Source of the DNA: Pristiophorus japonicus
Taxonomy: Eukaryota
Assembly: GCF_044704955.1 (NCBI RefSeq)
Contig: NC_091984.1
Coordinates: 143,468,001 to 143,532,000 of the forward strand
Direction: 5' to 3'
Length of the DNA stretch: 64,000 bases
A model generated the notes under the pieces. The model did no database searches. It saw only the letters and a program-made list of their open reading frames with translations, and was not told the origin of the DNA. This document shows positions 21,946 through 62,261 of this stretch, piece by piece. Each line of letters starts with the position of its first letter. Position 1 is the stretch's first letter. A program made the translations under genes and the position numbers.

Positions 21946-22622
21946 CGTAATACCCTTACCCAACAGGGTGCTGATGGTGCCGGAGAACCAGCCTGAGCCT
22001 CAGATCCTGAACTGTCCACTGCAACACTGGACTGAGACACAGAGGGAGCAGTGTGTGCAAAGTGGTGATTGGCTGGTCCGCTGGTCCCCGAGACCCCTCC
22101 CCGACCCCACAGTCCCAACAGGATCGCCCCCCTCGATACCCAGCACCCAGTCCCACCAGAGCCCCTGACCTCCCCGTGACCCCCATGATCCCTCCCCACC
22201 CCCCGATCACGCCAGTCCCCCCCGTTCCACGCACAGTCAGCCCCCGATAAAGCCCACCCTCCCCCGGCCCGGTCTCCCTTCTCCTGGGTAACAGTCTTGC
22301 ACACACATACACACACCTACAGACAGTGCTGGGTAACAGTCTCACACACACACACACACACACCTACAGGCGGTGCTGGGTAAGTCACACTAACACGCAG
22401 CAACATGTACACGGTGATACACTGACTGCTCCTCTCCCTAAGCTGAGGCCTCACTTGGTACAGTTTTGTGCTGCTGCCATGAGCCACCCGTTAAGGAGAG
22501 AGAATGCAACATTGTGACTGTGGCCTCCTGCCCCCAGATTGCCCCCAGCAGTCAGCACACAGTGCACAGTGCGATCCCACCATCGGGGGCAGCCCCAACA
22601 ACCCCAGTGTGCAGAGTGAGAA

Positions 22623-23735
22623 CCAACAAGCTCCCCGCTGGAGTGGAACTAAACTACAGAACCAGTGGGAACCTGTTCAACCTGCGCAGTCTCCAGGCCA
22701 GATCCAAGGCCACTCCAACCTCGGTCGTCGAGCTACAGTATGTGGACGATGTCCGCATCTGCGCACATACAGAGGCCGCACTCCAGGACATAGTCGACGT
22801 ATTTACTGAGGCATACGAAAGCATGGGCCTTACGCTAAACATCTGTAAGACAAAGGTCCTCCATCAGCCTGCCCTCATCACACAGCACTGCCCCCAGTCA
22901 TCAAGATCCATGGCGCTGCCCTGGACACCGTGGACCACTTCCCATATCTCGGGAGCCACCAATCAACAAGAGCAGGTATTGACGACGAGATCCAACACTG
23001 CCTCCATGCGCCAGTGCAGCCTTCAGTCGCCTGAGGAAAAGAGTGTTTGAAGATCAGGCCCTCCAAACTGCCACCAAGCTCATGGTCTACAGGGCTGTAG
23101 TAATACCTGCCCTCCAATATGGCTCAGAGACATGGACCATGTACAGCAGACACCTCAAGTTGCTGGACAAATATCACCAACGATGTCTCCGCTAGATCCG
23201 ACAAATCCCCTGGGAGGACAGGCACACCAACATCAGCGTCCTCAGTCAGGCTAACATCCCCAGCATTGAAGCACTGTCCACACTCGATAGCTCCGCTGGG
23301 CAGGCCACATAGTCTGCAAGCTAGACACGAGACTCCCAAAGCAAGTGCTGTACTCGGAGCTCCTTCATGGCAAACGAGCCAAAGGTGGGCAGCGGAAACG
23401 CTACAAGGACACCCTCAAAGCCTCCCTGATAAAGTGCAACATCTCCACTGACACCTGGGAGTCCCTGGCCCAAGACCACCCTAAGTGGAGGAAGTGCATC
23501 CGACAGGGCGCTGAGCACCTCGAGTCTCGTCGCCAAGAGCATGCAGAAACCAAGTGCAGGCAGCGGAAAGAGCGTGCGGCGAATCTGTCCCCACCCACCC
23601 CTTCCCTCAATGACTGTCTGTCTCACCTGTGACAGAGTCTGTGGTTCTCGTATTGGACTGTTCAGCCACAAAAGAACTCACTTCAGGATGGAAGCAAGTC
23701 TTTCTTGATTCCGAGGGACTGCCGATGATATGATG
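22623..23735 (+). mobile_element. RTE-clade LINE 3' fragment, present only in the left arm
   Basis: LQYVDD..GLTLNICKTKVL, GGQRKRYKDTLK, (GAT)n tail; absent at the mirrored site ~61800-61820. Confidence 0.88.
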
Positions 23736-24589
23736 AGAATGGGATGGTTTAATCCCAGCAGCTTTTAGTGTCTGTGTTTAATCTTGTGCACTCCAGGGGT
23801 TCGAGGACAAATTGATCGTTTTGAAATGATTGATAATTGGCTTTGAATCAAATCTCCTGCCAACGTGCCATTGATTGACAGCCCACTCAGCCAATCAGGA
23901 CAGACACTTACTGAAATGCAGCCAATCCAGCTGAGGGGGAGGTGGGACATTTCCAAAGCACTCGCCAGACACAGACTAAATATTATTCACATTTATTGCC
24001 TTTTACAGATTCACATTTAGAGAAACAAGATTTGAATAAACAGCCCAGCGAGAGCGAGCTGGAGACATTCACAGGGAGAATGCAGCTTTATTAAAACAGT
24101 TGTGGGGATTTTCTCCACACCGAGAGAATCCTGTCCCTTTAAACGTGGACAAAACCTTGAATTGTAACAGCAGGGTGAGCAGGGAGGGGATCTGCTTACT
24201 GAAGCGGCACTTCGCAGTTTAACATTAGTTTTACTCTGCTGACAGTCTTCAGCATCTTCGAGAGGTTTTACTTGGCAGCACGAGTCAACACTGTCCCATC
24301 AAACCCTCCCAGGGCAGGTACAGCACGGGTCAGATACAGAGTAAAGATCCCTCTACACTGTCCCATCAAACACTCCCAGGGCAGGTACTGAACAGGTTAG
24401 ATACAGAGTAAAGCTCCCTCGACACTGCCCCAATAATGTGCCTTACCCCCTGACCCTCAGATGCTTTCCCTGACCCAGTCCCGAGAAGGAAGAGAGTAGA
24501 AATGCAGTGCTGACAATGACCTTTGTCCTCCCGGCTCACCCCCTGTTCTATTTAAAGTTGCGTCTCCCCCGCGGATTGTCCCTGACACA

Positions 24590-24918
24590 CTACGCACATT
24601 CTGCTCTCCTGACTCCCTTGCTGAGGGGAGAGGAGAGACTCTCGTGGGTGAGGCTGCAGGAGAAGCTGGCGTTGGACTCCCAGTCGGAGCCAGAGAGGGT
24701 CAGCAGGCTGCTGACACTGTAGGTGTTGTCCGAAGCTCGCAGGTAGTCGCTGGTCTGGACCCCGGCCGAAATGGTCGCCCCGTCCTTCTTCCACTCCATC
24801 TCCACCGCATCGGGGTAGAAGTGATCGGCGAGGCACACCAGGGTGGCAGTGCCCTTGGTCGTGACCTCCTCCGGGGAGGGGGGCAGCAGGGTCAGCGTGG
24901 GCGGTGTCTTCCCTCGGC
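24590..24918 (-). CDS. IGKC: Ig kappa-type light-chain constant exon, copy 2 (orphan; no V/J found)
   Basis: Acceptor tttcAG at 24920-24919; RGKTPPTLTLLPPSPEEV..TLVCLADHFYP..W..YSVSSLLTL..FSCSLTHE..RRAECA*; 6 nt differences from copy 1; AATAAA (minus) at 24087-24092 and 23992-23997. Confidence 0.93.
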
Positions 24919-25159
24919 CTGAAAGGGAGGAGAAGGATGTTTAACAGGTGTATATTAGTCTGTGTGTGTGTGTGTGTCACTGTGGGTGTTTCCGTGTGGG
25001 GATAATTCACATCTGATAACGGAGAGTTGGGTTAATGAACTCCTGGCTGGCGATTAACCATTAGAGGCGAGCAACACTAATTCTTAATCTTCTTTGCCTC
25101 GCTTGATAAGTTCAATATAAATATAAATGCGTTTGAAGTTAAGGTATTTAAAAAAAAAA

Positions 25160-25620
25160 ATCTTTCATTTATATTATGCCTTTCACAACCACCGGACATC
25201 TCAAAGCACTTTTCAGCCAATGAAGTACTTTTGGAGTGTCGTCACTGTTGTAATGTGGGAAACACGGCAGTCAATCTGCGCACAGCAAGCTCCCACAAAC
25301 AGCGATGTGATAATGACCTGATAATCTGTTCTTTTGTCATGTTGGTTGAGGGATAAATATTGACCAGGGCACCGGGGAGAACTCCCCTGCTCTTCTTCAA
25401 AATAGGGGCATTGGATCTTTTACATCTACCTGAGAGGGCAGACGAGGCCTCAGTTTAAAATTTCATCTGAAAGACGACACCTCCAACAGTGTTGCACTCA
25501 CTCAGCACTGCCCTGCAGTGTCAGCCTCGATTTTTGTGCTCAAGTGCCTGGTATGGGACTTGAACCCACAACATTCTGAATCAGAAGCGAGAGTGCAACG
25601 CATTGAGCCACGGCTGATGC
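25160..25620 (-). mobile_element. tRNA-derived SINE (mirror copy at ~60020-60445, +)
   Basis: B-box-like GGTTCAAGTCCC on minus strand and a body shared with other copies. Confidence 0.75.
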
Positions 25621-25849
25621 TCAAAATCATACTGGGGTGAGGTCAAGGGTGAGGCTACAATTAGCCTCAGTGTACCAGGGTCAGGCAGGGTCACTGCTCC
25701 CAATGATCCCGTGACCTCCTGGAAGGTCAGAGTGCGCAAACAATGGCCGAGGGTCAGGATCAGGGCCCTCCCACTTCAATGAAAGAAAGCCTTGAATTTA
25801 TATCGCGCCTTTCACAACCTCAGGATGTCCCAAGGTGCTTTACAACCAA

Positions 25850-28800
25850 TTGTACACAGGGAGATTTACGAGGATGTTGCCTGGACTGGAAAATGTTAGC
25901 TATGAAGAAAGATTGGATAGGCTTGGGTTGTTTTCTTTGGAATAGAGGAGTCTGAGGGGAGACCTTATTGAGTTGTATAATATTATGAGGGGCCGAGATA
26001 GAGTGGATAGGACGGACCTATTTCCTTAAGCAGATTGGCCAACAACCAGGGCATAGATTTTAAAGTAATTGCTAGGAGGTTTAGAGGGGATTTGAGGGGA
26101 AATATCTTCACCCAGAGGGGGTGGGGGTCTGGAACTCACTGACTGAAAGGGTGGTAGAGGCAGAAACTCTCATCACTTTTAAAAATTACTTGGATGTACA
26201 CTAGAAGTGCTGTAACCTACAGGGCTACGGACCAAGAGCTGAAAAGTATGATTAGGCTGGATAGATCTTTGCCAGCCAGTGCAGACACGAATGGCCTCCT
26301 TTCATGCTGTAAATTTCTCTGATTCTATGAGCTCCCAGACTGCAATGAGATTATGACCAGATCATCGGCTTTAACTATGTTAGTTGTGGGTTAAATATTG
26401 GCCAGGACACTGGGAAGAACCCCCATGCCCTTCCAATAATGATTATGAGATCTTTCATGTTCACTTAAGAGGGCAGATGGGACTTCGGTTTAACGTCTCA
26501 TCTGAAAGACGGCACCTCTGACAGAGGGAAGATATGTTTGAAGGATCATCAAATGAGGCCATATGGTTTAAACTGATGAACAGAAAAGGGACAATCACAC
26601 TGCTGGGAGTGTACTATCGACCCCTAAACAGTCAGAGGGAGATAGAAGAGAAAATATGTCGGCAAATTGCTGAGAAGTGCAAAAACAATCGGGCAGCAAT
26701 AGTCAGGGATTTCAACTCCCCTCACATTAACTGGGATGGAATCATGTCAAAGGTATAGAGGGTGCAGAATTCTTCAAATGCATTTAGGAGAACTTTTACA
26801 GTCAGTACGTAGCAAGCCCAGCAAGGGAGGCGCGGTTCTTGGCTTAGTTTTTGGAAATGAAGCTGGGCAGGTGGAAGGGAGATCAGTGAGAGAGCATTGT
26901 GGTGCTCGTGATTATAATTCAGTTAGATTTAGTGTAGTTATGGAAAAGGACAAAGATAGAGCAGGAATAAAGGTTCTCAATTGGGGAAAGGCCAATTTTA
27001 CTAAGCTGAGAGGTGATTTAGCAAAAGTGGTCTGGAAACAGCTACTTGAAGGTAAATCAGTGTCAGAGCAGTGGGAGGCATTCAAGGGGGAGATAGTGAG
27101 GGTTCAGAGCAAGTATGTTCCCACAAAGGAAAAGGGTGGCACTCCCAAATCTAGAGCCCCCTGGATGTCAAAGGGCATACAGGATAGGTTATGGCAAAAA
27201 AGGGAAGTTTATGTCAAATACCCAGAGCTAAATACTGCAGAAAGCCCAGAGGTGTATAGAAAGTGCAGGGGTGAAATTAAAAAGGAAATTCGAAATACAA
27301 AGAGAGGGCATAAAAAAATACTGGCAAGTAAAATCAAGGAATACTCAAAGATGTTTTATAAATAAAGAGCAAGAGGATAACTAAAGAAAGAGTTGGGCCT
27401 ATTGGAGACCAAAAAGGTACCCTGTGTGTGGAGGCGGAAGACGGGGGAATGGTTCTTAATGAATATTTTGCATCTGTCTTCACAGAAGAGAGGGACGATG
27501 CAGACATTGTAATTAAGGAGGACAAGTGTGAAATATTAGATGAGATAAACATAGTGAGAGAAGAAGTATTAAGGAGCTTAGCATCTTTGATCGTAGAAAA
27601 ATCACCAGGCCCGGATGAAATGTATCCCAGGCTTTTAAGAGAAGCAAGCGGGGATATAGCAGAGGCTCTGACCATCATTTTCCAATCTACTCTGGCTACA
27701 AGTGTGGTGCCAGAGGACTGGAGGACTGCTAATGTGTACCTTTGTTTGAAAAGTGAGAAAGGGATAGACCGAGTAATTACAGGCCAGTCAGCCGAACCTT
27801 GGTGGAGGGAAAATTATTGGAAACAATAATTGTCATATAGAAAGGGACATATTAATCAAGGACAGTCAGCATGGATTTATTCAGGGAAGGTCGTGCCTGA
27901 CTAACTTGATTTAATTTTTTGCGGAGATAATAAGGAGAGTCGATGAGTTTTGCATCTTTGATGTCGTACACATGGACTTTTGCAAGGTTTTTGGTGAGGT
28001 CTCACATGGCAGAAAAGTAAAAAGCCCAGGGATCCAAGGGAAAGTGGCAAGTTGGATCCAAAATTGGCTCAGTGGCAGGAAGCAAAGTGTAATGATCAAC
28101 GGGTGTTTTTGTGACTGGAAGGCTGTTTCATGTGGGGTTTCAAGCCAGGTTTGCTGATAATACAAAGATGGGAGGAAAAGCAATGTGTGATGAGGATACA
28201 AAAAACCTGCAAAAAGACAGACAGGCAAAGTGAGTGGGCAAAAATTTGGCAGATCGAGTATAATGTTGGAAAGTGTGAGGTTATGCACATTGGCAGAAAA
28301 AAATCAAAGAGCAAGTTATTATTCCAATGGAGAAAAATTGCAAAGTGCTGTAGTACAGCGGGACCTGAGGGTACTTGTGCATGAAACACAAAAGGATAGT
28401 ATGCAGGTACAGCAAGTGGTCTGGAAGGCCAATGGAATCTTGGCCATTAATGCAATGGGGATGGAGTATAAAAGCAGGGAAGTCTAGCTACAGTTATACA
28501 GGGTATTGGTGAGGCCATAGCTGGAATACTGCGTGCAGTTTTGGCTTCAATATTTAAGAAAGGATAGACTTGCTTTGGAGGCAGTTCAGAGAAGGTTCAC
28601 TAGGTTGATTCCAGAGATGAGGGGAGTTGTCTTTTGAAGAAAAGTTGAGTAGGTTGGGCTTCGACTCATTGGAATTCAGAAGAATAAGAGGTGATCTTAT
28701 CAAAACATGTAAGATTATGAGGGGCCATGCAAGGTGGATGCAGAGAGGATGTTTCCACTGATAAGGGAGACTAGAACTAGGGGGCTTAATCTTAGAATAA

Positions 28801-30700
28801 GTGGCCGCCCATTTAAAACTGAGATGAGGAGGAATTTCTTCTCTCAGAATCTTTAACCTCTAAGTATTCTCTAATCTTTGGATTACTCCCGGTGCCGCGA
28901 GCTAGTGAATACAGAAACAGGAGGATAGAGCAGATGAATGTGTGACGGGAGAGATGGTGCAGGCGGGATGCATTAGGTTCCTGAGGCATTGGGACCGCTT
29001 CTGGGGGAGGTGGGACCTGTACAAGCCGACCGGGTTGCTCCTCAACAGAGCCGGGACCAATAGCCACGAGTGGGGCATTTGCTCGTGCTGTTGGGGAGGG
29101 TTTAAACTAGCTTGGCAGGGGGATGGGAACCGGAGAATAGATTCAGTAGGGAGGGAAGTAAAGCTGGAATTAGAAAGCAAAAATAAAGAAAGTGAGTTTG
29201 AAGGAGAGAGGAAACAAGCAGATAAAAAGGGTAAAAAAACAAATTTAAAGGCTCTTTGCCTAAATAACAAAATAGCTGAGTTGATGGCACAAATAGATAC
29301 AAATGAATATGATCTGATAGCCATTACAGAGACGTGGTTGCAAGGTGACCAGGACTGAGAACTAAATACTCAGGAGTCCTTGACAATCCGGAAAGGACAG
29401 ACAGAAAGGTAAAGTAGGTGGGGTAGCTCTGTTGACAAAGGATGGAATTACTGCAATAGTGAGAAATTATATTGGCTCAAATGATCAGGATGTTGAAACT
29501 GTTTGGGAGGAGATAAGGAATAATAAGGGGAAAAAGTCACTGGTGGGCATAGTCTATAGGTCCCCTAACAGTAGCAACTCTGTTGGTCGGAGTATAAACC
29601 AAGAAATAGTGGGGGCCTGTAAAAATGGAACAGCAATAATTATGGGTGATTTTAACCTCCACATTGATTGGATAAATCAAATTGGTCAGGGTAGTCTTGA
29701 GGAAGAGTTCATAGAGTACATAAGGGACGGGTTCCTTGAGCAGTCTGTAATGGAACCAACCAGGGGGCAGGCTATCTTAAATCTGGTCCTGTGTAATGAG
29801 ACAGGATTAGTAAACAATCTCCCAGTAAAGGATCCCCTTGGACTGAGTGATGATAACATGGTTCAATTTCAAATTCAGATGGAGGGTGAGAAAGATGGAT
29901 CTCTAACCAGCGTACTAAGCTTAAATAAAGGAGACTACAAAGGTATAAGTGCAGAGTTGGCTAAAATGGACTGGGAAAATAGATTAAAGTGTAGGACAGC
30001 TGATGAACAGTGGCGTACATATGAAGGAGATATTTCACAACTCTCAAGAAAAATATATTCTAGTGAGGAGGAAAGGGTGCAAAAGAAAAGATAGCCATCC
30101 GTGGCTAACTAAAGAAATAAACAACGGTATCCAATTAAAAACAAGGGCATACAAAGTGGCCAAAACTAGTGGAAGGACAGAAGATTGGGAAGCTTTTAAA
30201 AGCCAACAAAGAATGACTAAAAAAATGATTAAGAAGGGGAAGATAGACGATGAAAGTAAACGAGCACAAAATATAAAAACAGATAGCAAGAGTTTCTATC
30301 GGTATATAAAAAGGAAAAGAGTGGCTAAAGTAAATGATGGTCCCTGAGAGGACAAAACCAGGGAATTAGTGATGAGGAACATGGAGATGGCAGAAACTCT
30401 GAACAAAGATTTTGTATCAGTCTTTACGGTAGAGGACACTGAGATGAGGAGGAATGTTTTCTCTCAGAGGGTTGTAAATCTGTGGAATTTGCTGCCTCAG
30501 AGAGCTGTGGAGGCTGGGTCATTGAATATATTTAAGACAGAGATGGACAGTTTCATAACTGATAAGGGAATAAGGGGTTATGGGGAGCGGGCAGGGAAGT
30601 TGACCTGAGTCCATGATCGGATTGGCCATGATCGTATTAAATGGTGGAGCAGGCTCGAGGGGCTGTGTGGCCTACTCCTGCTCCTATTTCGTATGTTCTT
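25850..30700 (+). mobile_element. Mosaic of CR1 fragments
   Basis: Endonuclease (GVYYRP, GDFN) and RT fragments with several junctions. Confidence 0.85.
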
Positions 30701-30779
30701 AAAATGAGGAGGAGTGGGACTAATTGGGTAAATCTTTCAAAGAGCCGGCACAGGCACGATGGGCCGAATGGCCTCCTTC

Positions 30780-31040
30780 TGTGCTGTAAGATTCTAGTCT
30801 GTGAGCGCGGTTCACAGTTTTCTCCCACGTCATTAACAAACGTACAGCTGTGACAACCTCTCTCTTTCACTTCCTCTGTGGGTGAAGTTTAATTCTTCCG
30901 ATCTGACAATCTCTTCAGTTATTTTTTGCACGGGGGATTTCTGCTGTGGTCTGAGTCTCTAATAATAACGGTCCAATCAGGCAGAATAACAGCAGCTCGG
31001 ACCGGCTAGGACAGCGGACCCAGGCTCAGTGCTGACCCTG
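30780..31040 (-). promoter_or_regulatory. Candidate B-cell enhancer, copy A
   Basis: CAGCTG 30845-30850; EICE tttcacttcctc 30865-30876; GGGGATTTCT 30933-30942; TGTGGT 30945-30950; CTAATAATAA 30959-30968; CCAAT ~30973. Confidence 0.5.
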
Positions 31041-31259
31041 CAACGTCCTCCTCACCAACATCTGGGGACTTGTGCCAAAAGTGGGAGAGCTGCCCCACAG
31101 ACTAGTCAAGCACCAGCCTGACATTGTCCTACTCACAGAATCAGAGCTTTCAGCCAATGTCCTACTGCACCCCCACCACTGACCTTCCTGCCCCCGAAAT
31201 CCGTGAATCCTTAAACAGGAACCCGTTTGAAGAACAGTTTGTATTGAAGTTCTGGGTGT

Positions 31260-34200
31260 GAAAGAGTCTTTGCTGAGAAAACAATCACTATCACGAGAGA
31301 AAAAGTTACTCGGTAAAATAATGGAACTAAAGGTGCACAAGTCCCCTGTACCTGATGGCCTGCATCCTAGGCTCTTAAATGAAGTGGCTGCAGAGATAGT
31401 GGATGCATTGGTTGAAATGCATCAGAGGGTCTAGTGAGGAGGAGGAACTGAAGGATATCCTTGTTCGGCGGGAAATTGTGTAAGTGAAATTGATGGGATT
31501 GAAGGCCGATAAATCCCCGGGGCCTGATAGTCTGCATCCCAGAGTACTTAAGGATGTGGCCCTAGAAATAGCGGATGCATTTGTGATAATTTTCCAACAG
31601 TCTACTGACTCTGGATCAGTTCCTTTGGACTGGAGGGTAGCTAATGCAACACCACTTTTTAAAAAAGGAGGGAGAGAGAAAGTGGATAATTATGGACCGG
31701 TTAGCCTGACATCAGTACTGCGGAAAATGTTGGAATCAATTATTAAGGATGAAATAGCAGCGCAATTGGAAAGCAGTGACAGGATTGGTCCAAGTCAGCA
31801 TGGATTTATAAAGGGGAAATCATGCTTGACAAATCTTCTGGAATGTTTTGAGGATGTAACTGGGAGAGTAGACAAGGGAGAACCAGTGGATGTGGTGTAT
31901 TTGGACTTTCAAAAGGCTTTTGACTAGATCCCACACAGGAGATTGGTGTGCAAAATCAAAGCACTTGGTATTGGGGGTAATATACTGACGCGGATAGAGA
32001 ACTGGTTGGCAGACAGGAAGCAGAGAGTCGGGATAAATTGGTCCTTTTCAGAATGGCAGGCAGTGACTAGTGGAGTGCCACAGGGCTCAGTGCTGGAACC
32101 CCAGCTCTTTACAATATACGTCAATGATTTGGATGAAGGAATCGAGTGTAATATCTCCAAGTTTGCAGATGACACTAAACTGGGTGGCAGTGTGAGCTGT
32201 GAGAGGGACGCTAGGAGGCTGCAGGGTGAATTGGACAGGTTAGGTGAGTGGGCAAATGCATGGCAGATGCAGTATAATGTGGATAAATGTGAGGTTATCC
32301 ACTTTGGGGGTAAAAATGCGAAGACAGAATATTATCTGAATGGTGGCAGATTCGGAAAAGGGGAGGTGCAATGAGACCTGGGTGTCATGGTTCATCAGTC
32401 ATTGAAAGTTGGCACACAGGTACAGCAGGCGGTGAGGAAGGCAAATGGTATGTTGGCCTTCATTGCTAGGCGATTTGAGTACAGGAGCAGGGAGGCCTTA
32501 CTGCAGTTGTACAGGGCCTTAGTGAGGCCTCACCTGGAATATTGTGTTCAGTTTTGGTCTCCTAATCTGAGGAAGGACGTTCTTGCTATTGAGGGAGTGC
32601 AGCGAAGGTTCATCAGACTGATTCCCGGGATGGCTGGACTGACATATGAGGAGAGACTGGATCAACTGGGCCTGTATTCACTGGAGTTTAGAAGGATGAG
32701 ATGGGATCTCATAGAAACATATAAAATTCTGACGAGACTGGACAGGTTAGATGTGGGTAGAATGTTCCCGATGTTGGGGAAGTCCAGAACCAGGGGACAC
32801 AGTCTTAGGATACGGGGTAGGCCATTTAGGACTGCGATGAGGAGAAACTTCTTCAATCAGAGAGTTGTTAACCTGTGGAATTCCCTGCCGCAGAGATTTG
32901 TTGATGCCAGTTCATTAGGTATATTCAAGAGGGAGTTAGATATGGCCCTTACTGCTAAGGGGATCAAGGGATATGGAGAGAAAGCAGGAAAGGGGTACTA
33001 AGGGAATGATCAGCCATGATCTTATTGAATGGTGGTGCAGGCTCGAAGGGCCGAATGGCCTACTCCTGCACCTATTTTCTATGTTTCTATGTAAATCTAC
33101 CAAAGTTCCCTGGATTCTAGAGATGTCCCAGCAGATTGGAAAACTGCAAATATAACGACCCTATTTAAAAAAGGAAGGAGACAGAAAACAGTAAACTATA
33201 GACCAGTTAGCCTAACATCTGTCGTTGGGAAAATGCTGGTGTCCATTATTAAGAAAGCAGTAATAGGACATTTGGAAAAGCATAATTCAGTCAAGCAGAG
33301 TCAGCATGGACTTATGAAAGGGAAATCATGTTTGACACATTTGCTGGAGTTCTTTGAGGAAGTAATGTGCAGGATGGATATGGGGGAACAAGTGGATACG
33401 GTGTATTTGGATTTCCAGAAGGGATTCAATAAGGTGCCACATAAAAGAATACCGCACACGATAAGAGAACACGGGGTTGGTGCTAATACATTAGCATGGT
33501 TCGAGGATTGGCTAACTAACAGAAAACAGAGAGTCAAGATAAATGGGTCATTTTCTGGTCGGCAACCAGTAACTAGTGGGGTTTCACAGGGATCGGTGTT
33601 GGGGCCTCACCTATTTACAATCTATATTAATAACTTGAATGAAAGGACTGAGTGTAAAAAATCGAAGAGCAAATTATTATTTAAATGGAGAAAGATTACA
33701 AAATGCTGTCGGACAGAGGGACCTGGGGGCCCTTGTGCATGAGACACAAAAAGTTAGTATGCAGATACAGCAAGTAATCAGGAAGCAAATGGAATGTTGG
33801 CCTTAATTGCAAGGGGGATGGAGTATAAAAGCAGGGAAGTCCTGCTACATCTGTACAGGGTATTGGTGAGACCACACCGAGAATATTGTGTACAGTTTTG
33901 GTCTCCTTATGTAAGGAGGGATATATTTGCACTGGAGGCAGTTCAGAGAAGGTTCACAAGGTTGATTCCTGAGATGAAGGGGCTGACTTATGAAGAAAGA
34001 TTGAGCAGGTTAATCAGAACATAAGAAATAGGAACAGGAGTAGGACATACGGCCCCTCCGCCATTCAATAAGGTCATGGCTGATCTGATCATGGACTCAG
34101 CTCAACTTCCACGCTCGCTCCACATATTCTTGTAAACTCCAAAGAGTATGAGAGGTGAACTTATTGAAACATATAAGATTCTGAGGGGATTCGACAAGAT

Positions 34201-46941: not shown

Positions 46942-46970
46942 ACCGGGAAGGAGATGGAGGGAGAGAAGAA

Positions 46971-49127: not shown

Positions 49128-49214
49128 GTAAGTAAACCCCAATGCTCCATTATTAAATCTTTAAATACTGAATCTTTCTAAGACACAAATGCTGAATATG
49201 CGAAGGTGTTTGTT

Positions 49215-50213: not shown

Positions 50214-53200
50214 ACATAGAAAATAGGAGCAGTAGTAGGCCATTCGGCCCTTCGAGTCTGCACCGACATTCAATATGATCATGTCTGTTCCCCTGTCTCA
50301 ACATCATATTCCCGCTTTTTCCCTATACCCTTTGATGCCTTTTGTAAGCCAAGGGGTAAGCCATTTAGGACCGAGATGAGGAGAAACTTCTTCACCCAGA
50401 GAGTGGTGAACCTGTGGAGTTCTCTACCACAGAAAGTTGTTGAGGCCAATTCACTAAATATATTCAAAAAGGATTTAGATTAAGTCCTTACTACTAGGGG
50501 GATCAAGGGGTATGGCAAGAAAACAGGAATGGGGTACTGAAGTTGCATGTTCAGCCATGAACTCATTGAATGGTGGTGCAGGCTAGAAGGGCCGAATGGC
50601 CTACTCCTGCATCTATTTTCTATGTTTCTAGAAATCCATCTATCTGCCTCTTAAATATATTCAGTGACTTGGCCTCCACAGCCTTCTGTGGTGGAGAATT
50701 CCACAGGTTCACCACCCTCTGAGTGAAAACATTTCTCCTCATCTCGGTCCTAAATTTCCTACCCCGTATCCTGAGATTGTGACCACTTATTCTAAACTTC
50801 CCAGCCCGGGAAAACATCCTCCCCAGATCCAGTCTATCCAACCCAGTCAGAATTTTATATGTTTCAATGAGATCCCCTCATTCTTCTGAACTCTAGTGAC
50901 TGCAGGCCCAGTCGACCCAATCTCTCCTTATACGACAGTCCTGCCATCCCAGGAATCAGTCTGGTGAACCTTCGCTGCACTCCCTCTATGGCAAGGATAT
51001 CCTTTCTTAGGTAAGGAGACCAAAGCTGCACATAATATTCCAGGTGCGGTCTCACCAAGGCCCTGTAGTAAGACCTCGTTGCTCCTGTACTCAAATCCTC
51101 TTGCAATGAAGGCCAACGTACCATTTGCTTTCCTAACTGCTTGCTGCACCTGTATGTTTGCTTTCACTGACTGGTGTACAAGAACACCCAGGTCCCTCTG
51201 TACATCTACACTTCACAAACCATCACCATTTAAATAATACTTTGTCCTTATGTTTTTCCTACCAAAGTGAGTAACTTCACACTTATCCACAATATGTTAC
51301 ATCTGTCATGTGTTTGCTCACTCACTCAACCTGTCTAAGTTTCATTGCATCCTCCTCACAACTCATAATCCAATCTAATTATGTGCTGTCAGAAAACTTG
51401 GAAATATTACATTTGGTTCCCTAATTCAAATCATTTATTTATACATTGTGAATATCTGGGGCCCAAGCACTGATCCCTGTGGTACCCCACTCGTCACTGC
51501 CCACCACCCTGAAACACACCCATTTATTCCGACTGTTTCCTGTCAGTTAACCAATTTTCAATCCATGTCAATACATTACCCACAATCCTATGTGCTTTAA
51601 TTTTGCACACTAACCTCTTTTGTGGGATTTTTATCGAAAGCCTTCTGAAAATCCAAATACACTACATCCACTGGTTCTCCATTACCTATTCTATCAGTTA
51701 GATCCTCAAAAAACTCCAGTATGTTACTTTCATAAATCCACGTGACTGTCTTTAACCCCGTTGATGTTATCGAAGTGCACCGTTATCACTTCCTTTATAA
51801 TAGACTCTAGCATTTTCCCTATTAATGACCGGTCTGTAGTTCCCCGTTTTCTCTCCCTCCTTTTTTAAATAGTGGGGTTACATTTGCCACCCTCCAATCT
51901 GCAGGAACTGTTCCATAATCTATAGAATTTTGGAAGATGACAATCAATGCATCTACTATTTCCATGGCTACCTCTTTTAATACTCTGGGATGCAGATCAT
52001 CAGACCCTGGGGATTTATCAGCCTTCAGGCCCATTAGTTTCTCCAGCACTATTTTCTTACTAATAATCATTTCCTTTAATTCCTCTTGTTCACTGGACCC
52101 ATGGTTCCCTAGCATTTCTGGGAAGTTATTTGTATCCTCCTCCGTGAAGAGATTATTTACCTCAGTGCTGTGTGTGGGAGCTTGCTGTGCACAAATTGGC
52201 TCCCGTGTTGGCCACATTACAACAGTGACGACACTTCAAAATGTACTTCATTGGCTGTGAAGCACTTTGGGACATCCTGAAGTGTGAAAGGTGCAATATA
52301 AATGCAGGTCTTTCTTTAATTTCTCTTTTCTTTTTATTAACTGGGACTCGCACAATTCCCCTGCTGATTAAACCTGGACCCAGCAGAAAATCCCCAGAAC
52401 ACGGACTAACGTTCCATAAGAACATGGGAATTAGGAGCAGGAGGAGGCCATTTGGCCCCTCGAGCCTACTCCATCATTCAATGAGATCATGGCTGATCTT
52501 CTACCTCAACTCCACTTTCCTGCACTGTCCCCATATCCATCGATCCCTTAATATCCAAAAATCTATCGATCTCCGGAATATAGAAACATAGAAACATAGA
52601 AAATAGGTGCAGGAGTAGGCCATTCGGCCCTTCTAGCCTGCACCGCCATTCAATGAGTTCATGGCTGAACATTCAACTTCAGTACCCCATTCCTGCTTTC
52701 TCGCCATACCCGTTGATCCCCCTGGTAGTAAGGACTTCATCTAACTCCTTTTTGAATATATTTAGTGAATTGGCCTCAACAACTTTCTGTGGTAGAGAAT
52801 TCCACAGGTTCACCACTCTCTGGGTGAAGAAGTTCCTCCGCATCTCGGTCCTAAATGGCTTACCCCTTATCCTTAGACTGTGACCTCTGGTTCTGGACTT
52901 CCCCAACATTGGGAACATTCTTCCTGCATCTAACCTGTCTAACCCCGTCAGAATTTTAAATGTTTCTATGAGGTCCCCTCTCATTCTTCTGAACTCCAGT
53001 GAATACAAGCCCAGTTGATCCAGTCTTTCTTGATAGGTCAGTCCCGCCATCCCGGGAATCAGTCTGGTGAACCTTCGCTGCACTCCCTCAATAGCAAGAA
53101 TGTCCTTCCTCAGGTTAGGAGACCAAAACTGTACACAATACTCCAGGTGTGGCCTCACCAATGCCCTGTACAACTGTAGCAACACCTCCCTGCCCCCGTA

Positions 53201-53650
53201 CTCAAATCCCCTTGCTATGAAGGCCAACATGCCATTTGCTTTCTTAACCGCCTGCTGCACCTGCATGCCAACCTTCAATGACTGATGTACCATGACACCC
53301 AGGTCTCTTTGCACCTCCCCTTTTCCTAATCTGTCACCATTCAGATAATAGTCTGTCTCTCTGTTTTTACCACCAAAGTGGATATATTCAAGGACTGAGC
53401 CTCCACAGCCCTCTGGGGTAGAGAATTCCAGAGATTCACCACCCTCTGAATGAAGAGGTTTCTCCTCATCTCAGTCCTAAATGGCCGACCCCTTATTCTG
53501 AGACTGTGACCCCTGGTTCTAGACTTCCCAGCCAGAGGAAACATCCTCCCTGCATCTACCCTGTCAAGCCCTGTCAGAATATTGTATGATTCAATGAGAT
53601 CCCCTCTCATTCTTCTAAACACTAGAGAATATAAGCCTAATATACTCGAT
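50214..53650 (-). mobile_element. CR1 mosaic in the J-C intron (young copy ~52580-53380)
   Basis: ORF 52679..53314 nearly identical to 19410..20267; other RT fragments. Confidence 0.88.
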
Positions 53651-54654
53651 CTCTCCATAGGACAATTTCCCCATCCCAGATGTCCGTCTGATGTGTCTGC
53701 GTGTTTGTCACACGTGACGGAGCAGGAGTTCCACCAGCAACACCGGACGTTACCTCAGTGCCCGGCCCACTTTCCCCATCCACTTACCACATTCTTACAG
53801 GTAAACGGGCTCAGCACCTGCCCTCAGCCGGTGAAATGTCTCCCCTCTACACCACGGGCTGCCCGTCATCTGCTCCCCATTTCACTCCTGTAGGCACTAC
53901 CTCTGGCTGGGGCTCAGCTCCTCTCCCCAAGTGGGCTCATTGTCCCAGTGTGAGCCCAGAGACTGAGCTCCCCAAGTGGGCTCATTGTCCCAGTGTGAGT
54001 CCAGAGAGTGAGCGTGTCAGGCTAATCGACCGTGAGGTGTCAGCCGTGGCTCAGTCGTTAGCATGCTCGGCTCTGAGAAAAGGAAGATTTGCATTTATAT
54101 AGCGCCTTTCACGACCACCAGACATCCCAAAGTGCTTTACAGCCAATGAAGTACTTTTTGAAGTGTACTCACTGTTGTAATGTAGGAAACTCAGCAACCA
54201 ATTTGTGCACAGCAAGCTCCCACAAACAGCAATGTGCTGATGACCAAATAACCTGTTTTTGTTTTGTTGATTGTGGGATAAATATTGGCCAGGACACCAG
54301 AGTTTGATTTGAACCCACAATCTCTGACTCAGAAGCGAGGGTGGTTCCAACTGAGCCACTGGCTGATACCATTCGGCCCATCGTGTCCGTGCCGGCCGAC
54401 AAAGATCTATCCAGCCTAATCCCACTTTCCAGCTCTGGGTCCGTAGCTCTGTAGGTTACGGCACTTCAAGTGCACATCCAAGTACTTCTTAAATGTGGTG
54501 AGGGTTTCTGCCCCTACCACCCTTTCAGGTAGTGAGTTCCAGACCCCCACCACCCTCTGGGTGAAAAGGATTCTCCTCAACTACCCTCTAATCCTTCTAT
54601 CAATTACTTTAAATCTGTGACACCTGGTTAGTGACCCTACTGCAGAGGGAAATA

Positions 54655-56580
54655 GGTCTTGGCCGCATCCTCCGCCAGGATCAACTGAGAAATGTTCCGC
54701 ACTCCTGGTGGGTCAGTGGCAGGTGGACTCCCTGCTGGAGGAGCTCAGGCCTTTTGCCTAGAGCACGACCCATTTCCTCTATCTGGGAGTCTACCTTAGC
54801 CCTGACGAGGAAGCCTGGCCGGCGAACTGCCAGGAGCTGGAGGCCAAAGTCGCCGCTCACCTAGGGCGCTGGACAGGACTGCTCCGAGTGCTGTCCTACA
54901 GGGGTCCAGTGCCATCATAAACCAGCTGGTGGCCTCTATGCTGTGGTACTGGCTGGTCACTTTGACCCCTCCCCCGCGTTTGTCGCCAAGATACAGAAGA
55001 AGCTGGTGGACTTCTTCTGGAACAACAGGAAACATTGGGTCTTTGCTGCGGATTTAAGTCTCCCACTTAGGGAGGGCGGTCAGGCGTTGGTGTGCATCAG
55101 TACCCAGCATGTGACTTTCCATCTTCAGTCCCTACAGAGATACCTGTACGTCGAGCCCCCTCCTACGTGCATTGGGGACGTATTTCTTCCGCCAGCAGTA
55201 CTGCCTCAATTATGACATGCAGCTCCTGTTTGTGAGCCTGGGGGGCATCAGGACCCCCATACGGGGGCTTCCTGTCTTTTACCAGGAATTCATCAGAGTC
55301 TGGAACAGTGTCACCACCAAGCGCAGGTCTCCCCCGTCTGGAGTGGCGGCTGTCCTGCAGGAGCCGCTGCTCAGGAATCTGTACCTCCATGACCGCGGTT
55401 TTAGGTGGCAGGCAGACGAGAGTGCTGTGGCTGGCGAGGTGACCAGGGTCAGGGATCTGCTTGATGGCGGAGGAGTGGGCTGGATGTGGCCAGACTTGGT
55501 AGGATGTTGCCTAAACTGGGTCAACATCCAACGTGCGGCCAATGCCATCGAGTCGCTAAAAACAGCACTGGTCCCTGACTCCGTTAGGTGTGTCGAGGAG
55601 GCTCAAGCACGTGGGTTGATCCCCTCCGAACTGACCCCCGTCCAGACAGAATTCCTCATCGCACCAAGCCCCAAAACCTCCTTTTGGAGCCGGCACCTCC
55701 CAACTTGAGCCTCCTCGGGGAAATCCCCTCGTGCCTTTCAGTTCTGCGTGGAGGGGTTTCCTGTACGGGCTGTTCCTGCACACTCTCAACCTTGCCATTC
55801 TCGTCTGCCGTCCAGACACGCCATGGCATACCATCTTGTCGTCCGGAGGAGGCGGGGGTCCCCAGTGGAGTGCACTCTACGCGGGAGTCCTCCCTCTATT
55901 TATTGGGGACTTGGCCTGGAGGGTGTTGCACGGAGCAGTCCCGTGCAATAAGTTTTTAAGTCGGTTCACGGGCTCCCAGGCCGCTTGCAATTTCTGCTGT
56001 CTGGAAGAGTCCGTGTTCCTTGTTTTTATGGAGTGTGTGAGGTTGCAGCCCCTCTTCTGTTATTTGAAGGGGCTGCTCCTCAAATTCTGGTTGCACTTCA
56101 GTCCCATACACCTGATCTTTGGGCACCCTGTGCGGAGAGGAGCGGGCAGGTCAGAAGGCCTCCCCGTAGGACTGCTCCTGGGCATGGCCAAGTGGGCCAT
56201 CAGCCGGTCCAGGCAGCGGGCGGTCGAAGGGGTTGTTCATCCTGACTGCCTGCCTCTCTTCCACGGTTACATCCGAGCCAGGGTATCCCTGGAGCTGGAG
56301 CACGCGGTGTCCACCGGTACTTTCACGAGAGGTGGGCACTGGAGGGACTGGAGTGCATCATCACCCCCGGCAGCCAAATTTTAATTTGATCATTTAATTT
56401 TATAGTTTAATTTGTTTAATTTGCCAGTTTTAGTGCCCCCCCTTTTTGGCCCAGGGGACACTTGTATAATTTGTGTGTTGGTGCCCTCAAAAAAAAACGG
56501 GCACTGGAAAAATGTATCTTGGTGTGTGACCCTCCCCCCGCCCCCCTTCAGGGGGCATTTGTTTAAAGTGCACAAATAAA
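54655..56580 (+). mobile_element. Tx1-clade LINE, 3' half of ORF2 and 3' UTR
   Basis: YLGVYL, KIQKKLVDFFW..LPLREGG, DLAWRVLHGAV..CNFC..ESVFLVFMEC. Confidence 0.82.
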
Positions 56581-56584
56581 ATAG

Positions 56585-59480
56585 TTGTGGGAAATAGGTC
56601 CTTCTTAACCACTCTATCTCGGCCCCTCATAGTTTTATACACCTCAATTAAATCTCCCCTCAGCCTCCTCTGCTCCAAAGAAAATAACCCAGCCTATCCA
56701 ATCTTTCATCATAACTAAAATTTTCCAGTCCTGGTAACATCCTCATAAATCTCCTTTGTACTCTAGCTGTGGCTGAACTACTATTTTAAACAGTTATAAC
56801 ATAACCTCCCTGCTCTTATATTCAGTGCCACGACTAATAAAGGCAAGTATCCCATATGCCTTCTTAGCCACCTTATCTACCTGGCCTGCTACCTTCAGGG
56901 ATCTGTGGTCCTGCACTCCAAGGTCCCTTTGTTCCTCTACACTTCTCAGGGTCCTACCATTTAATGTGTCTTCCCTTGCCTTGTTAGCCTTCCCCAAATG
57001 CATTACCTCACAGTTCTGGATTGAAATCCATTTGCCACTGTTCTGCCCACCTGACCAGTCCATTGATACCTTCCTGCAGTCGATAGCTTTCTTCCTCACT
57101 ATCATCTGCAAACTTCTTAATCATGTTCTCGACATTGAAATCTAAATCATTGGTGTACATTACAAAGAGCAAGGGACTTAGTACTGAGCCCTACGGAACC
57201 CCACTCGAAACAGCCTTCCAGTCACAAAAACATCCGTTAACCATTACCCTTGGCTTCCTGCCACTGAGCCAATTTTGGATCCAACTTGCTACTTTCCCTT
57301 GGATCCCATGGGCTTTTACTTTTCTGCCACATGAGACTTTGCCAAATGCCTTGCAAAAATCCATGTAGACTACATCAAAGGTGCAACACTCATCGACCCT
57401 CCTTGTTATCTCCGCAAAAAATTCACTCAAGTTAGTCAGGCACGACCTTCCCTTAACAATTCCATGCTGACTGTCCTTGATTAATCTGTCGCTTTCTATA
57501 TGACAATTTATCCTCTCCCTCAGAATTGTTTCCAATAATTTTCCAACCACCGAGGTTAGGCTGACTGGCCTGTAATTACTCGGTCTATCCCTTTCTCACT
57601 TTTTAAACAAAGGTACCACGTTAGCAGTCCTCCAGTCCTCTGACACCACACCTGGAGCCAGAGAGGATTGGAAAATGATAGTCAGAGCCTCTGCTATTTC
57701 CTCCCTTGCTTCTCTTAACAACCTGGGATACATTTGATCTGGGCCTGGTGATTTATCCACTTTCAAAGCTGCTAAGCCCCTCAATACTTCCTCTCTCACT
57801 TTGTTTATCTTATCTCATATTTCATACTTCTCCTCCTTAATTACAATGTCTGCATCGTCCCTCTCTTCTGTGAAGACAGATGCAAAGTATTCACAAAGAA
57901 CCATACCCACGTCTTCCGTCTCCACACACAGGTTATCTTTTTGGTCTCCAATAGGCCCCACTCTTGCCTTGCTCTTTATGTATTTATAAAACATCTTTGG
58001 GTTTTCCTTGATATTACTTGCCAATATGTTTTCATGCCTTCTCTTTGCATTCCTAATTTCCTTTTTAATTTCACCCCTGCACTTTCTAAACTTCTCTGGG
58101 CTTTCTGCAGTATTTAGCACTGGGTATCTGACATAAGCTTCCCTTTTTTGCCTTATCCTACCCTGTATGACCTGTGCCATCCAGGGGGCTCTAGATTTGG
58201 GAGTGCCACCCTTTTCCTTTGTGGGAACATACTTGCTCTGAACCCTCACTATCTCCCACTGCTCTGACACTGATTTACCTTCAAGTAGCTGTTTCCAGCC
58301 CACTTTTGCTAAATCACCTCTCAGCTTAGTAAAATGGGCCTTTCCCCAATTGAGAACCTTTATTCCTGCTCTGTCTTTGTCCTTTTCCAAAACTACGCTA
58401 AATCTAACTGAATTATAATCACTAGCACCAAAATGCTCTCCCACTGATACCCTTTCCACCTGCCCAGCTTCATTCCCTAAAACTAAGTCCAGAACCACCC
58501 CTCCCTTGTTGGGCTTGCTACGTACTGGCTATAAAAGTTCTCCTGAATGCATTTGAAGAATTCTGGGACCTCTGTACCTTTGACACTGATTCCATCCCAG
58601 TTAATGTGAGGGGAGTTGAAATCCCCGACTATTGCTGCCCGATTGTTTTTGACCTTCTCAGCAATTTGCCGACATATTTTCTCTTCTATCTCCCTCTGAC
58701 TGTTGAGGGGTCTATAGTACACTCCCAGCAGTGTGATCGCCCCTTTTATGTTCATCATTTTAACCCATATGGACTCATTTGATGATCCTTCTAACATATC
58801 CTCCCTCTGTCAGAGGTGCTGTCTTTCAGATGAGACGTTAAACCAAAGTCCCGTCTGCCCTCTCAGGTGGACATGAAAGATCCCATAACTACTACTGGAA
58901 GGGCAAGGGGGTTCTTCCCAGTGTCCTGGCCAATATTTATCCCACAACAAACATAGTTAAAACTGATGATCTGGTCATGATCTCATTGCCGTCTGGGAGC
59001 TTCATAGAATCAGAGAAATTTACAGCATGAAAGGAGGCCATTCGGCCCATCGTGTCCACACCGGTCGACAAAGATCTATCCAGCCTAATCCCACTTCCCA
59101 GCTCTTGGTCCGTAGCCCTGTGGGTTACCGCATTTCAAGTGTACATCCAAGTATTTCTTAAATGTGCTAAGGGTTTCTGCCTCTACCATCCTTTCAGGCA
59201 GTGAGTTCCAAACCCTCACCACCCTCTGGGTAATGACATATCCCCTCAAATCCCCTCTAAATCTCCGACCAATCACTTTAGATCTATGCCCTGGTTATTG
59301 AGCCCTATGCTAAGTGAAATAGGTCCGTCTTATCCATGCTATCTAGGGCCCTCATAATTTTATACACCTCAATAAGGTCTCCCCTCAGCCTCCTCTGTTC
59401 CAAAGAAAACAACCCCAGCCTATCCAATCTTTCCTCATAGCTAAAATTTTGCAGTCCAGGCAGCATACTCGTAAACCTTC
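56585..59480 (-). mobile_element. CR1 fragments plus SINE piece (57190 onward mirrors 25850-28140)
   Basis: ORFs 56794..58797 and 59085..59505 on minus strand. Confidence 0.85.
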
Positions 59481-60688: not shown

Positions 60689-61017
60689 GCCGAGGGAAGA
60701 CACCACCCATGCTGACCCTGCTGCCCCCCTCCCCGGAGGAGGTCACGACCAAGGGCACTGCCACCCTGGTGTGCCTCGCCGATCACTTCTACCCCGATGC
60801 GGTGGAGGTGGAGTGGAAGAAGGACGGGGCGACCATTTCGGCCGGGGTCCAGACCAGCGACTACCTGCGAGCTTCGGACAACACCTACAGTGTCAGCAGC
60901 CTGCTGACCCTCTCTGGCTCCGACTGGGAGTCCAACGCCAGCTTCTCCTGCAGCCTCACCCACGAGAGCCTCTCCTCTCCCCTCAGCAAGGGCATCAGGA
61001 GAGCAGAATGTGCGTAG
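60689..61017 (+). CDS. IGKC: Ig kappa-type light-chain constant exon, copy 1 (partner of V/J)
   Basis: Acceptor cctttcAG at 60687-60688; RGKTPPMLTLLPPSPEEV..CLADHFYP..FSCSLTHE..RRAECA*; penultimate Cys typical of the interchain bond. Confidence 0.96.
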
Positions 61018-61448
61018 TGTGTCAGGGACAGTCCGCAGGGGAGACACAACTTTAAATAGAACAAGGGGTGAGCCGGGAGGGCAAAGGTCATTGTCAGCAC
61101 TGCATTTCTCCTTTCTTCCTTCTCGGGACTGGGTCAAGGAAAGCATCTGAGTCTCAGGGGGTAAGGCACGTTATTGGGACAGTGTAGAGGAAGCTTTACT
61201 CTGTATCTAACCCGTGCTGTACCTGCCCTGGGAGTGTTTGATGGGACAGTGTTGACTCGTGCTGCCAAGTAAAACCTCTTGAAGATGCTGAAGACTGTCA
61301 GCAGAGTAAAACTAATGTTAAACTGTGAAGTGCCGCTTCAGTAAGCAGACCTCCTCCCTGCTCACCCTGTTGTTACAATTCAAGGTTTAGTCCCCGTTTA
61401 AAAGGGACAGGATTCTCACGGTGTGGAGAAAATCCCCACAACTGTTTT

Positions 61449-61549
61449 AATAAAGCTGCATTCTCCCTGTGAATGTCTCCAGCTCGCTCTCGCTGGGCTG
61501 TTTATTCAATTCTTGTTACTCTAAATGTGAATCTGTAAAAGGCAATAAA
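61449..61549 (+). terminator. Polyadenylation signals of the light-chain transcript
   Basis: AATAAA at 61449-61454 and 61544-61549, both conserved in the left arm. Confidence 0.65.
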
Positions 61550-62261
61550 CGTGAAGAATATTCATTCTGTGTCTGGCGAGTGCTTTGGAAATGCCCCTCC
61601 TCCCCCTCAGCTAGATTGGCTGCATTTCAGTAAGTGTATGTCCTGATTGGCTCGGTGGGCTGTCAATCAATGGCATGTTAGCAGGAGATTTGTTTTAAAG
61701 CCAATTATCAATCATTTTAAAACGATCAATTTGACCTCGAACCCCTGGAGTGCACAAGATTAAACACAGAGACAGTAAAAGCTGCTGGGATTAAACTCTT
61801 CCAGTCTGGGCATTGTCTCTCACTCTGCACACTGGGCGTGTTGGGGCAGCCCCGATAGTGGGATCGCACTGTGCACTTGTGCTGACTGCTGGGGGCAATC
61901 TGGGGGCAGGAGGCCAAGGTCACAACGTTGCATTCTCTCTCCTTAACGTGTGGCTCGTGGCAGCAGCACAAAACTGTCCCGAGTGAGGCCTCAGCTTCGG
62001 GAGAGGAGCAGTCAGTGTATCACCGTGTACATGTCCCTGAATGTTAGTGTGGCTTACCTAGCACCGCCTGTAGGTGTGTGTGTGTGTGTGTGAGTGTTAC
62101 CCAGCATTGTTATGTCGGCCTGAGGAGTGCTCCGCGGTGATGCGGTCTTTAAGGGACTGTGGGGGAGGAGGGGAGTGGAGGGGTGACCAGGGCGATGATC
62201 AGGGGCTGACCTTGTGTGGAATGGTGGGGACCAGGGCGATCGGGGGGGTGTTCTCAGGGAG

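Follow-up and report, generated by a model that had tools for sequence, protein, structure and literature searches.

The kappa light chain genes of nurse shark (NS4, type III) are organized as V-J-C clusters, and a review gives a V-J distance of 250-500 bp in the portions available (PMC2193156, PMC5192425). The available part of a zebrafish study reports neighboring IgL clusters of opposite polarity on one chromosome and inversional rearrangement between clusters; how sharks come to express one light chain out of dozens of clusters, and why rearrangement is confined to single clusters, is argued there from the distance and polarity of clusters, with no map (PMC3014032). The array described here provides such a map, in which clusters as a rule form close head-to-head pairs, nearly all with one arm that lacks V and J. 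As in zebrafish, adjacent clusters lie in opposite polarity, whereas the V, J and C of each shark cluster share one polarity. In contrast to the accessible descriptions of nurse shark kappa, the clusters are mapped here, mostly as head-to-head pairs in a 5.3-Mb array in which one arm is without promoter, V and J, and V and J of the cluster studied are 1.4 kb apart. We found no description of paired or orphan shark kappa clusters in the literature searched, which took in few subscription papers.

We analyzed a 64,000-nucleotide stretch of the Pristiophorus japonicus genome (the window). It contains one intact kappa-type V-J-C cluster on the + strand and, facing away from it, an open-frame C exon on the - strand without promoter, V or J. 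The window is one copy of a repeated module that places an intact cluster head-to-head with one stripped of promoter, V and J. The orphan C exon is probably a pseudogene in neutral decay that block duplication has copied along with its neighbor. The features of the intact cluster and its upstream flank (right arm) are as follows:

38370-38585, + strand: right-arm copy of element E, ~8.8 kb upstream of V, with GGAAGTGAAA at 38504
39200-41690, - strand: right-arm CR1, of the same subfamily as that at 28143-30701 in a different insertion site
46970-47175, + strand: V promoter and leader, with GGAAGTGAAA at 46973, the octamer variant ATTTACAT and a TATA-like box; leader exon at 47127-47175
47362-47691, + strand: V exon (47362-47663, open) and its 12-RSS (47664-47691)
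49054-49127, + strand: 23-RSS and J segment (49093-49127) with a GT donor
56600-58800, - strand: CR1 'LINE-A' in the J-C intron
60689-61017, + strand: the intact cluster's kappa C exon

A single V, a single J and a single C in the same orientation reproduce the cartilaginous-fish kappa cluster layout. The RSS spacers are 12 bp on V and 23 bp on J, which we take to be kappa-type polarity. The 23-RSS nonamer is GTATATTGT where most other J copies have GGATATTGT; it is degenerate in the right arm, and likewise in the other J copies read. FR1 of the V differs from the NS4A primer (PMC2193156) by one mismatch, and the copy number fits NS4/type III. Protein searches returned no named shark light chain among the matches.

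The left arm and the spacer between the arms comprise:

16848-28139, - strand: outer part of the left arm, consisting of 3' flank, C exon and those 3.2 kb of J-C intron that lie nearest C
22622-23735, + strand: LINE fragment, presumably RTE-like, in the 3' flank of the left arm only; it matches 62610-63315 in inverted orientation at 83-84%
24590-24918, - strand: orphan kappa C exon, an open frame of 108 codons with intact splice acceptor and no V or J upstream
26530-28139: CR1 'LINE-A', with which this part of the J-C intron ends
28139-28143, unstranded: nested deletion junction, with ~830 bp lost, 1-2 extra bases and no homology, in 16 copies genome-wide
28143-30701, + strand: block of composite CR1 from what was once the V-upstream flank (a 3' part, then an inserted 5' half, then a 3' end)
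30795-31010, - strand: element E of the left arm, with GGAAGTGAAA at 30865-30874, CAGCTG and TGTGGT; locus-specific
31163-38226, unstranded: spacer of nested LINE fragments

An earlier sequence-only reading had described a ~40-kb head-to-head palindrome of kappa clusters and asked for a self-comparison of the window, which recovered both sets of inverted matches. The outer arms align at 88.6-94% identity (22323-28139 against 62110-57197) and the inner arms in three blocks (29642-30440 against 41681-40881, 87.7%; 30438-30699 against 39461-39203, 88.6%; 30702-31162 against 38677-38227, 91.6%). As proposed, there is a C exon in both outer arms (+ strand 60689-61017, - strand 24918-24590; 98.2% identical), and the frame of each is open. 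The proposed arm ends at 22330 and 62105 do not hold, as inverted homology resumes farther out at 86-91% (16848-21152 against 74000-71030, the second partner lying beyond the window). The spacer is 2.65 kb shorter than its counterpart in the C8:143.80 Mb module, and we found no clean centre of symmetry within it.

Everything that a functional cluster has upstream of C (promoter, leader, V and J) is missing from the left arm. Neither tblastn with V and J nor blastn at word size 7 found a second V or J on either strand of the window, and blastn found no second promoter or leader; the minus strand, where a V or J was to have refuted the earlier reading, yielded nothing. That one arm is without V and J is thus borne out, and the loss is older and more general than had been proposed. 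The same reading held that 41700-57190 has no left counterpart; this stands for V and J, while part of the interval is foreign to the lineage of the left arm.

The arrangement recurs throughout the 5.3-Mb array. A V-J-less arm lies head-to-head with 35 of 44 V-plus-C clusters, and the facing arm is without V or J in 35 of 37 pairs, so the inversional route would be closed there. Only two pairs are intact, both widely spaced (V-V 50-55 kb). On C8, 12 close copies of the form seen in the window are present, and the 38 deleted arms trace to two events; 18 of the 38 have no C within 12 kb. Other broken pieces, including V-only and C-only ones, also occur. A V lies within 30 kb of just 44 of the 76 C exons on C8. 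Even if the pattern is neutral, counts of C exons would overstate the number of shark kappa genes, and much of the array would derive from few duplicated modules.

The sequence-only reading placed the breakpoint of the V/J deletion at 28140. The junction there is real. Of the type-A loci checked, 14 of 14 have it; the flanks of copies that share it are on average 96.7% identical, and a 71-nt contig of run X4, possibly from the assembly's own sample, bridges it without mismatch (28102-28172). The misassembly named as a refuting possibility is not upheld. The placement itself was wrong, as 28140 marks a later, nested deletion of ~830 bp that erased the primary junction of a ~8-kb promoter-V-J deletion. 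The primary junction survives in sister copies (20 genome-wide), is identical in 8 of 8 type-B loci and is equivalent to right-arm positions 40672/56943; of these, 56943 is the J-C intron side of the primary breakpoint, and the nested one matches 57197. At C8:148.79 Mb, a donor-like cluster (G000:C8:148794524) shares this upstream CR1 block, with the composite order of 28143-30701 upstream of its V, and holds 7.8 kb with leader, V and J between both breakpoints. An independent V-J deletion is present in 13 copies genome-wide. Three independent deletions take out promoter, V and J and leave element E.

The deletion had been ascribed to LINEs. We rejected non-allelic homologous recombination between LINEs, since the two LINEs at the junctions are ~61% identical and the junctions are out of register between them, the primary by 738 bp, with 2-3 bp of microhomology, and the nested by 78 bp between the two CR1s. 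Repeats make up 40-60% of these regions regardless. As far as the junction sequences tell, LINEs host the breaks and no role for their homology is demonstrable. The inner arms were said to carry a CR1 of the same type together with an enhancer-like element; the subfamily is indeed the same, but the insertions differ, and the right arm has no insertion at the site that the left inner CR1 fills.

The breakpoints also bear on the very improbable alternatives of an assembly artefact or a germline deletion made by RAG. Near-identical copies exist (98.8% over 19.9 kb; L010 and L011 are identical in the tree), such that a few could be false duplications, and germline-joined VJ is present among the clusters of the array. 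RAG is reported to act in shark germ cells in the part of the source consulted (PMC2193156). The recurrence and bridging of the 28140 junction oppose an artefact, and we rejected RAG because the breakpoints lie kilobases from RSSs with no heptamer at the deleted ends, read by eye. The mammalian kappa-deleting element also loses part of a light-chain unit; it is somatic, acts via RAG and removes C, whereas the shark deletions arose in the germline at a distance from RSSs and took V and J.

A second rival is the earlier model itself, in which this cluster was locally duplicated in inverted orientation and then lost V and J by homologous LINE-LINE deletion at 28140. The inverted arms, the LINE sequence to either side of 28140 and the small register shift of the nested junction speak for it, and a single clade of the 12 orphans with their 12 partners, as an inverted duplication behind the ancestral pair would give, is not rejected (p-AU 0.26). 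However, the two arms of the window are not sisters (AU test, p 1e-76), the CR1 insertion sites differ, the 28140 junction is secondary and the primary junction is far out of register. The CR1 insertions of the left arm are shared with other cluster lineages, and the claim that it is an inverted duplicate of this right arm fails. The left arm comes from another cluster lineage, and the right arm did not give rise to it through a local foldback. The local-duplication model, already refuted on recency and breakpoint, keeps only a slight probability.

In the flank tree, which kept 59 of 76 rows, the 12 orphans form a clade (100/99), and their 12 partners form another (98/96). That all 22 orphans are monophyletic was neither recovered nor rejected (p-AU 0.20) and rests on the junctions. 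The arms show no co-phylogeny over 12 modules (Mantel rho -0.11, p 0.74), which points to a shuffling of arms among the copies. Clusters from different kappa lineages would have come to lie head-to-head, and a ~8-kb germline deletion of end-joining type, without homology, would then have joined the V-upstream CR1 to the J-C intron CR1 of one cluster. The nested ~830-bp deletion would have created the 28140 junction, after which unequal crossing-over and segmental duplication may have multiplied the half-dead pair and shuffled its arms. A second, independent deletion appears to have been amplified likewise.

Fifteen of the 22 orphan C exons are open and ~98% identical to V-linked exons, with flanks at 95% and 90%. 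Variants private to orphan exons (21 N:9 S, small numbers) fit the neutral expectation of 75% N (p 0.53), and those private to V-linked exons (22 N:20 S) suggest purifying selection (p 0.002 vs neutral). Neither the direct contrast between the two (p 0.15) nor the excess of disrupted exons, 7 of 22 orphan against 5 of 44 V-linked (p 0.09), reaches significance.

Alternatively, the orphan C may be maintained, through arm-to-arm conversion or by serving as a V-less transcript or a surrogate chain. Sex-chromosome palindromes likewise have large inverted arms with gene copies, kept near-identical by arm-to-arm gene conversion. The open frame, intact acceptor, uniform ~98% identity of C exons and the 20 of 50 orphan exon variants also found in V-linked exons would agree with maintenance. 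However, a similar share of flank variants is shared (0.42-0.45), the arms here are 88-94% identical, and arms are no more alike within modules than between them (exon, 0.979 vs 0.980, permutation p 0.88; 3' flank, p 0.08; intron, p 0.34; E, p 0.98), on which grounds we rejected arm-to-arm conversion. Lambda-5/IGLL1 is also a V-less C gene, with its own promoter and a J-like exon; the orphan has neither of these nor a leader, and its private variants look neutral. Maintenance is a poor prospect, of about the same low standing as local duplication or slightly below it. Array-wide conversion of C exons may nonetheless have taken place.

Element E is a candidate upstream enhancer on the strength of its motifs. 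GGAAGTGAAA, presumably an EICE-type motif (ETS-IRF composite), occurs in exact form in the window only in both E copies and the V promoter, and CAGCTG, which we take to be an E-box, is present in 62 of 62 E copies. The form GGAAnnGAAA is found in 52 of 62 copies overall and in 21 of 21 orphan copies, which are not independent of one another. In most intact clusters E is found ~3-9 kb upstream of V; in orphans it lies 6-9 kb from C. A CRE-like site was rejected as part of E, being present in just 3 of 62 copies.

These observations lend themselves to a selective explanation, which we regard as unlikely, though less so than the other rivals. The kappa locus would consist of head-to-head pairs with one arm from which promoter, V and J were lost repeatedly while E was kept, leaving one rearrangeable gene with a doubled enhancer; such asymmetry would have been favored and amplified by avoiding cross-arm inversional V-J joining and joint activation, and clusters would be excluded through architecture. 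The prevalence of V-J-less partners facing away, the wide spacing of the two intact pairs, the sparing of E by three deletions and the motif in every orphan E copy are consistent with it, and inversional joining between clusters is known from zebrafish, in the portion of that study consulted (PMC3014032). Against it, only two deletions were amplified, making the count as much founder effect as signal; E is no better conserved between arms than the 3' flank (95.6% vs 95.2%); its enhancer role is putative; and the array also contains other broken pieces.

We consider it likely that a few old deletions spread through block duplication and were not kept for function. Birth-and-death evolution via segmental duplication yields pseudogenes made by deletion, copied with their neighbors and decaying neutrally. 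The shark array resembles such families in these respects, and the birth and death of Ig clusters inferred earlier is supported, along with promoter-V-J loss from one head-to-head cluster. It differs in that amplification kept the dead copy together with intact genes, as their fixed partner, the 38 arms on C8 going back to two events. Neutral drift alone leaves unexplained the 35 of 44 V-J-less partners, the mere two intact pairs and the 21 of 21 orphan E motifs.

The two intact pairs, at C8:148.25-148.31 and 148.51-148.57 Mb, offer a place to test inversional inter-cluster joining in a shark. Two further loci, at C8:144.18 and 145.04 Mb, were considered as inversional V(+)...C(-) units and rejected, since the 20 kb read at each of them contains no J; each is a J-less V lying tail-to-tail with a type-B orphan.

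Self-comparison of the window revealed inverted arms at 22323-28139 and 62110-57197 (88.6-94% identity) and inner inverted matches between 29642-31162 and 41681-38227 (87.7-91.6%). Inverted homology continues leftward to at least 16848 and rightward, past the end of the window, to at least 74000. The sequence-only reading had described two inverted arms, each with a C exon and one without V and J, and self-comparison and tblastn/blastn searches bear this out. A search for V and J on the minus strand had been set beforehand as its test; neither tblastn nor blastn at word size 7 found a second leader, V or J in the window, and the C exon is the sole cluster part on that strand. The features are as follows.

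Leader at 47127, plus strand: promoter and leader, right arm
RSS at 47664, plus strand: open V exon with 12-RSS, right arm
49054-49127, plus strand: J with 23-RSS, right arm
60689-61017, plus strand: C exon of the intact cluster, right arm
24918-24590, minus strand: open orphan C exon, left arm, 98.2% identical to the plus-strand C exon
30795-31010: element E, left arm, locus-specific

The assignment to the kappa (NS4/type III) isotype is a prediction that rests on RSS polarity, a primer match and copy number. We take a 12-RSS on V with a 23-RSS on J to be the kappa-type polarity. The NS4A primer of PMC2193156 matches the window with one mismatch. No named shark light chain occurs among the protein-search matches. 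The sole database relatives of the C exon, P0001 and P0002 (81-83% identical), are labelled bacterial proteins, probably because host DNA contaminates those assemblies. Each C exon is followed, ~0.7 kb downstream, by CCAAT boxes and a G-rich box (23870-23950 and 61600-61680), in a flank that is 94% identical between the arms and may hold a 3' regulatory element.

In most intact clusters, element E is located ~3-9 kb upstream of V; in orphans (C exons of arms lacking promoter, V and J) it is 6-9 kb away from C, and thus the left arm is a cluster with its middle gone. The primary junction survives in eight orphans (type B), where it fuses the V-upstream CR1 (right-arm equivalent 40672) to the CR1 of the intron (56943), with microhomology of 2-3 bp. 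The cluster at 148.79 Mb of the window's contig (C8), itself defective in its J donor and C, shares this CR1 block upstream and still has V and J, with 7.8 kb between the two breakpoints. In fourteen type-A orphans, including that of the window, a further ~830 bp are gone across the primary junction. The joint at 28140, previously read as the breakpoint that removed V and J, is therefore a later, nested loss. Misassembly there, raised in the same reading, is argued against by a 71-nt contig, possibly from the assembly's own sample, spanning 28102-28172 with zero mismatches, and by 16 genome-wide copies of the nested junction. The primary junction has 20; junction copies on other contigs may represent a second haplotype.

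Two more deletions take promoter, V and J yet leave E in place: one occurs a single time (C8:144.40 Mb), the other in 13 copies. The former, at L016/L140 (C8:144406891), is a third promoter-V-J deletion, with right-arm equivalents 41442 to 49961. The latter, independent deletion (L149-L150, C8:143553193, and 12 other copies) starts ~0.5 kb upstream of V and ends inside the CR1 of the intron; the expected C exon position is empty in the copy read.

The proposal that LINEs mediated the loss is not supported, as the two CR1s at the junctions are ~61% identical and out of register by 738 bp (primary) and 78 bp (nested). Given a repeat content of ~40% in the V-upstream flank and 59% in the J-C intron, breaks within LINEs are expected by chance. 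The ends were probably joined by end-joining. RSS-guided breakpoints were rejected, as no RSS heptamer was seen by eye at these ends.

The left arm had also been viewed as an inverted duplicate of the present right arm, which three observations contradict. The CR1 at left E occupies a site that the right arm has uninterrupted; the same site is filled in five further V-bearing clusters that were examined. The 3' flanks of the window's arms are 94% identical, versus 95% between any two clusters. Finally, a tree was built from intron and 3' flank sequence, with 59 of 76 rows kept and the 17 that have no homologous flank excluded. In it, the 12 type-A orphans of the window's form are a clade of their own (100/99), as are their 12 partners (98/96), and the window's arms as sisters are rejected (p-AU 1e-76). 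For the 12 + 12 taken together (p-AU 0.26), and likewise for all 22 orphans (0.20), monophyly is neither shown nor rejected. Between the two arms of one module (an orphan arm and its intact head-to-head partner), similarity in exon, flanks and E is no greater than between arms drawn from separate modules, and distances in one arm show no covariation with those in the other. Array-wide conversion of C exons may have occurred, given their 98% identity.

The window, C8:143468001-143532000, lies at the left edge of a 5.3-Mb kappa array. C8 carries at least 76 C exons and at least 54 kappa-like V exons (lower bounds, as 150 of 154, 150 of 851 and, for J, 40 of 62 candidates were scored), one of each being an outlier at 159.5 Mb. 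Each C and V was read with 10 kb of sequence, and 30 further stretches were added. When the closest landmark in the 60 kb upstream of each V was counted, a deleted arm was opposite 35 of the 44 V-plus-C clusters (the nested form in 13, the primary in 12, the independent deletion in 10); four make up two intact pairs 50-55 kb apart, and five are arranged otherwise. Of 38 deleted arms, 18 lack a C within 12 kb. Selection for one V-J per pair might be invoked for so common an arrangement, and we consider it improbable; the facing-arm copies are not independent, descending from two events. Ordinary birth-and-death, a part of the earlier proposal that stands once LINE mediation is removed, probably produced this architecture through deletion and block duplication.

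Disrupted C exons make up 7 of 22 orphans versus 5 of 44 V-linked copies (p 0.09). Orphan-private variants (21 N:9 S) fit the neutral expectation of 75% N (p 0.53), V-linked-private variants (22:20) depart from it (p 0.002), and the direct contrast gives p 0.15.

An exact 20-mer of E occurs 87 times, 67 in the array and 20 on five other contigs. CAGCTG and TGTGGT are present in all 62 E copies, and GGAAnnGAAA in 52 of 62, including 21/21 orphan copies; we take these to be E-box, RUNX and EICE motifs, respectively. Exact GGAAGTGAAA is confined in the window to both E copies and the V promoter. E is a candidate enhancer, and its conservation does not exceed that of the 3' flank. In L091, L097, L111 and L118, the E-plus-CR1 block has the opposite orientation and sits 6-9 kb upstream of an intact V; the four clusters have this local inversion in common.

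PMC2193156 and PMC5192425 describe one-V-one-J-one-C kappa clusters, ~50-60 per genome and mostly split. According to PMC3014032, rearrangement in sharks is intra-cluster, with distance and polarity proposed as reasons; zebrafish IgL undergoes inversional inter-cluster joining. In the literature searched, we found no description of such half-deleted kappa cluster pairs in sharks, although subscription papers or supplements may contain one; what appears new is that most kappa clusters in the P. japonicus genome sit head-to-head with a V-J-less arm. The two intact pairs, in which each arm carries V and C, lie head-to-head at G000:C8:148249401/148304420 (V-V 55 kb) and 148512828/148562797 (50 kb), a layout that would allow cross-arm inversional V-J joining.

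L066 (C8:148180059) and L115 (C8:146963981), with 293 bp from V to J, are germline-joined VJ kappa genes, a form known from nurse shark. V exons without a same-strand C within 30 kb lie at C8:144184969 (interrupted by a young CR1), 145037941, 146563383, 147156773, 146832722, 143358113 and 145964789. The window's module is recently triplicated (C8:145282000-145340000 and ~147.43-147.47 Mb; 98.8% identity across 19.9 kb, with V exons that are identical or 99% alike), and the copies may be a falsely duplicated haplotype. An LTR-retroelement-like region (935-4549, minus strand) contains an open stretch of 477 aa that carries RVT_1 and RNase H domains; another stretch, of 301 aa, weakly matches a leucine zipper. 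Young CR1 copies occupy 19310-20625, 44819-46514 and 52580-53384, with 95-99% mutual identity, and one carries a 531-aa open RT stretch.
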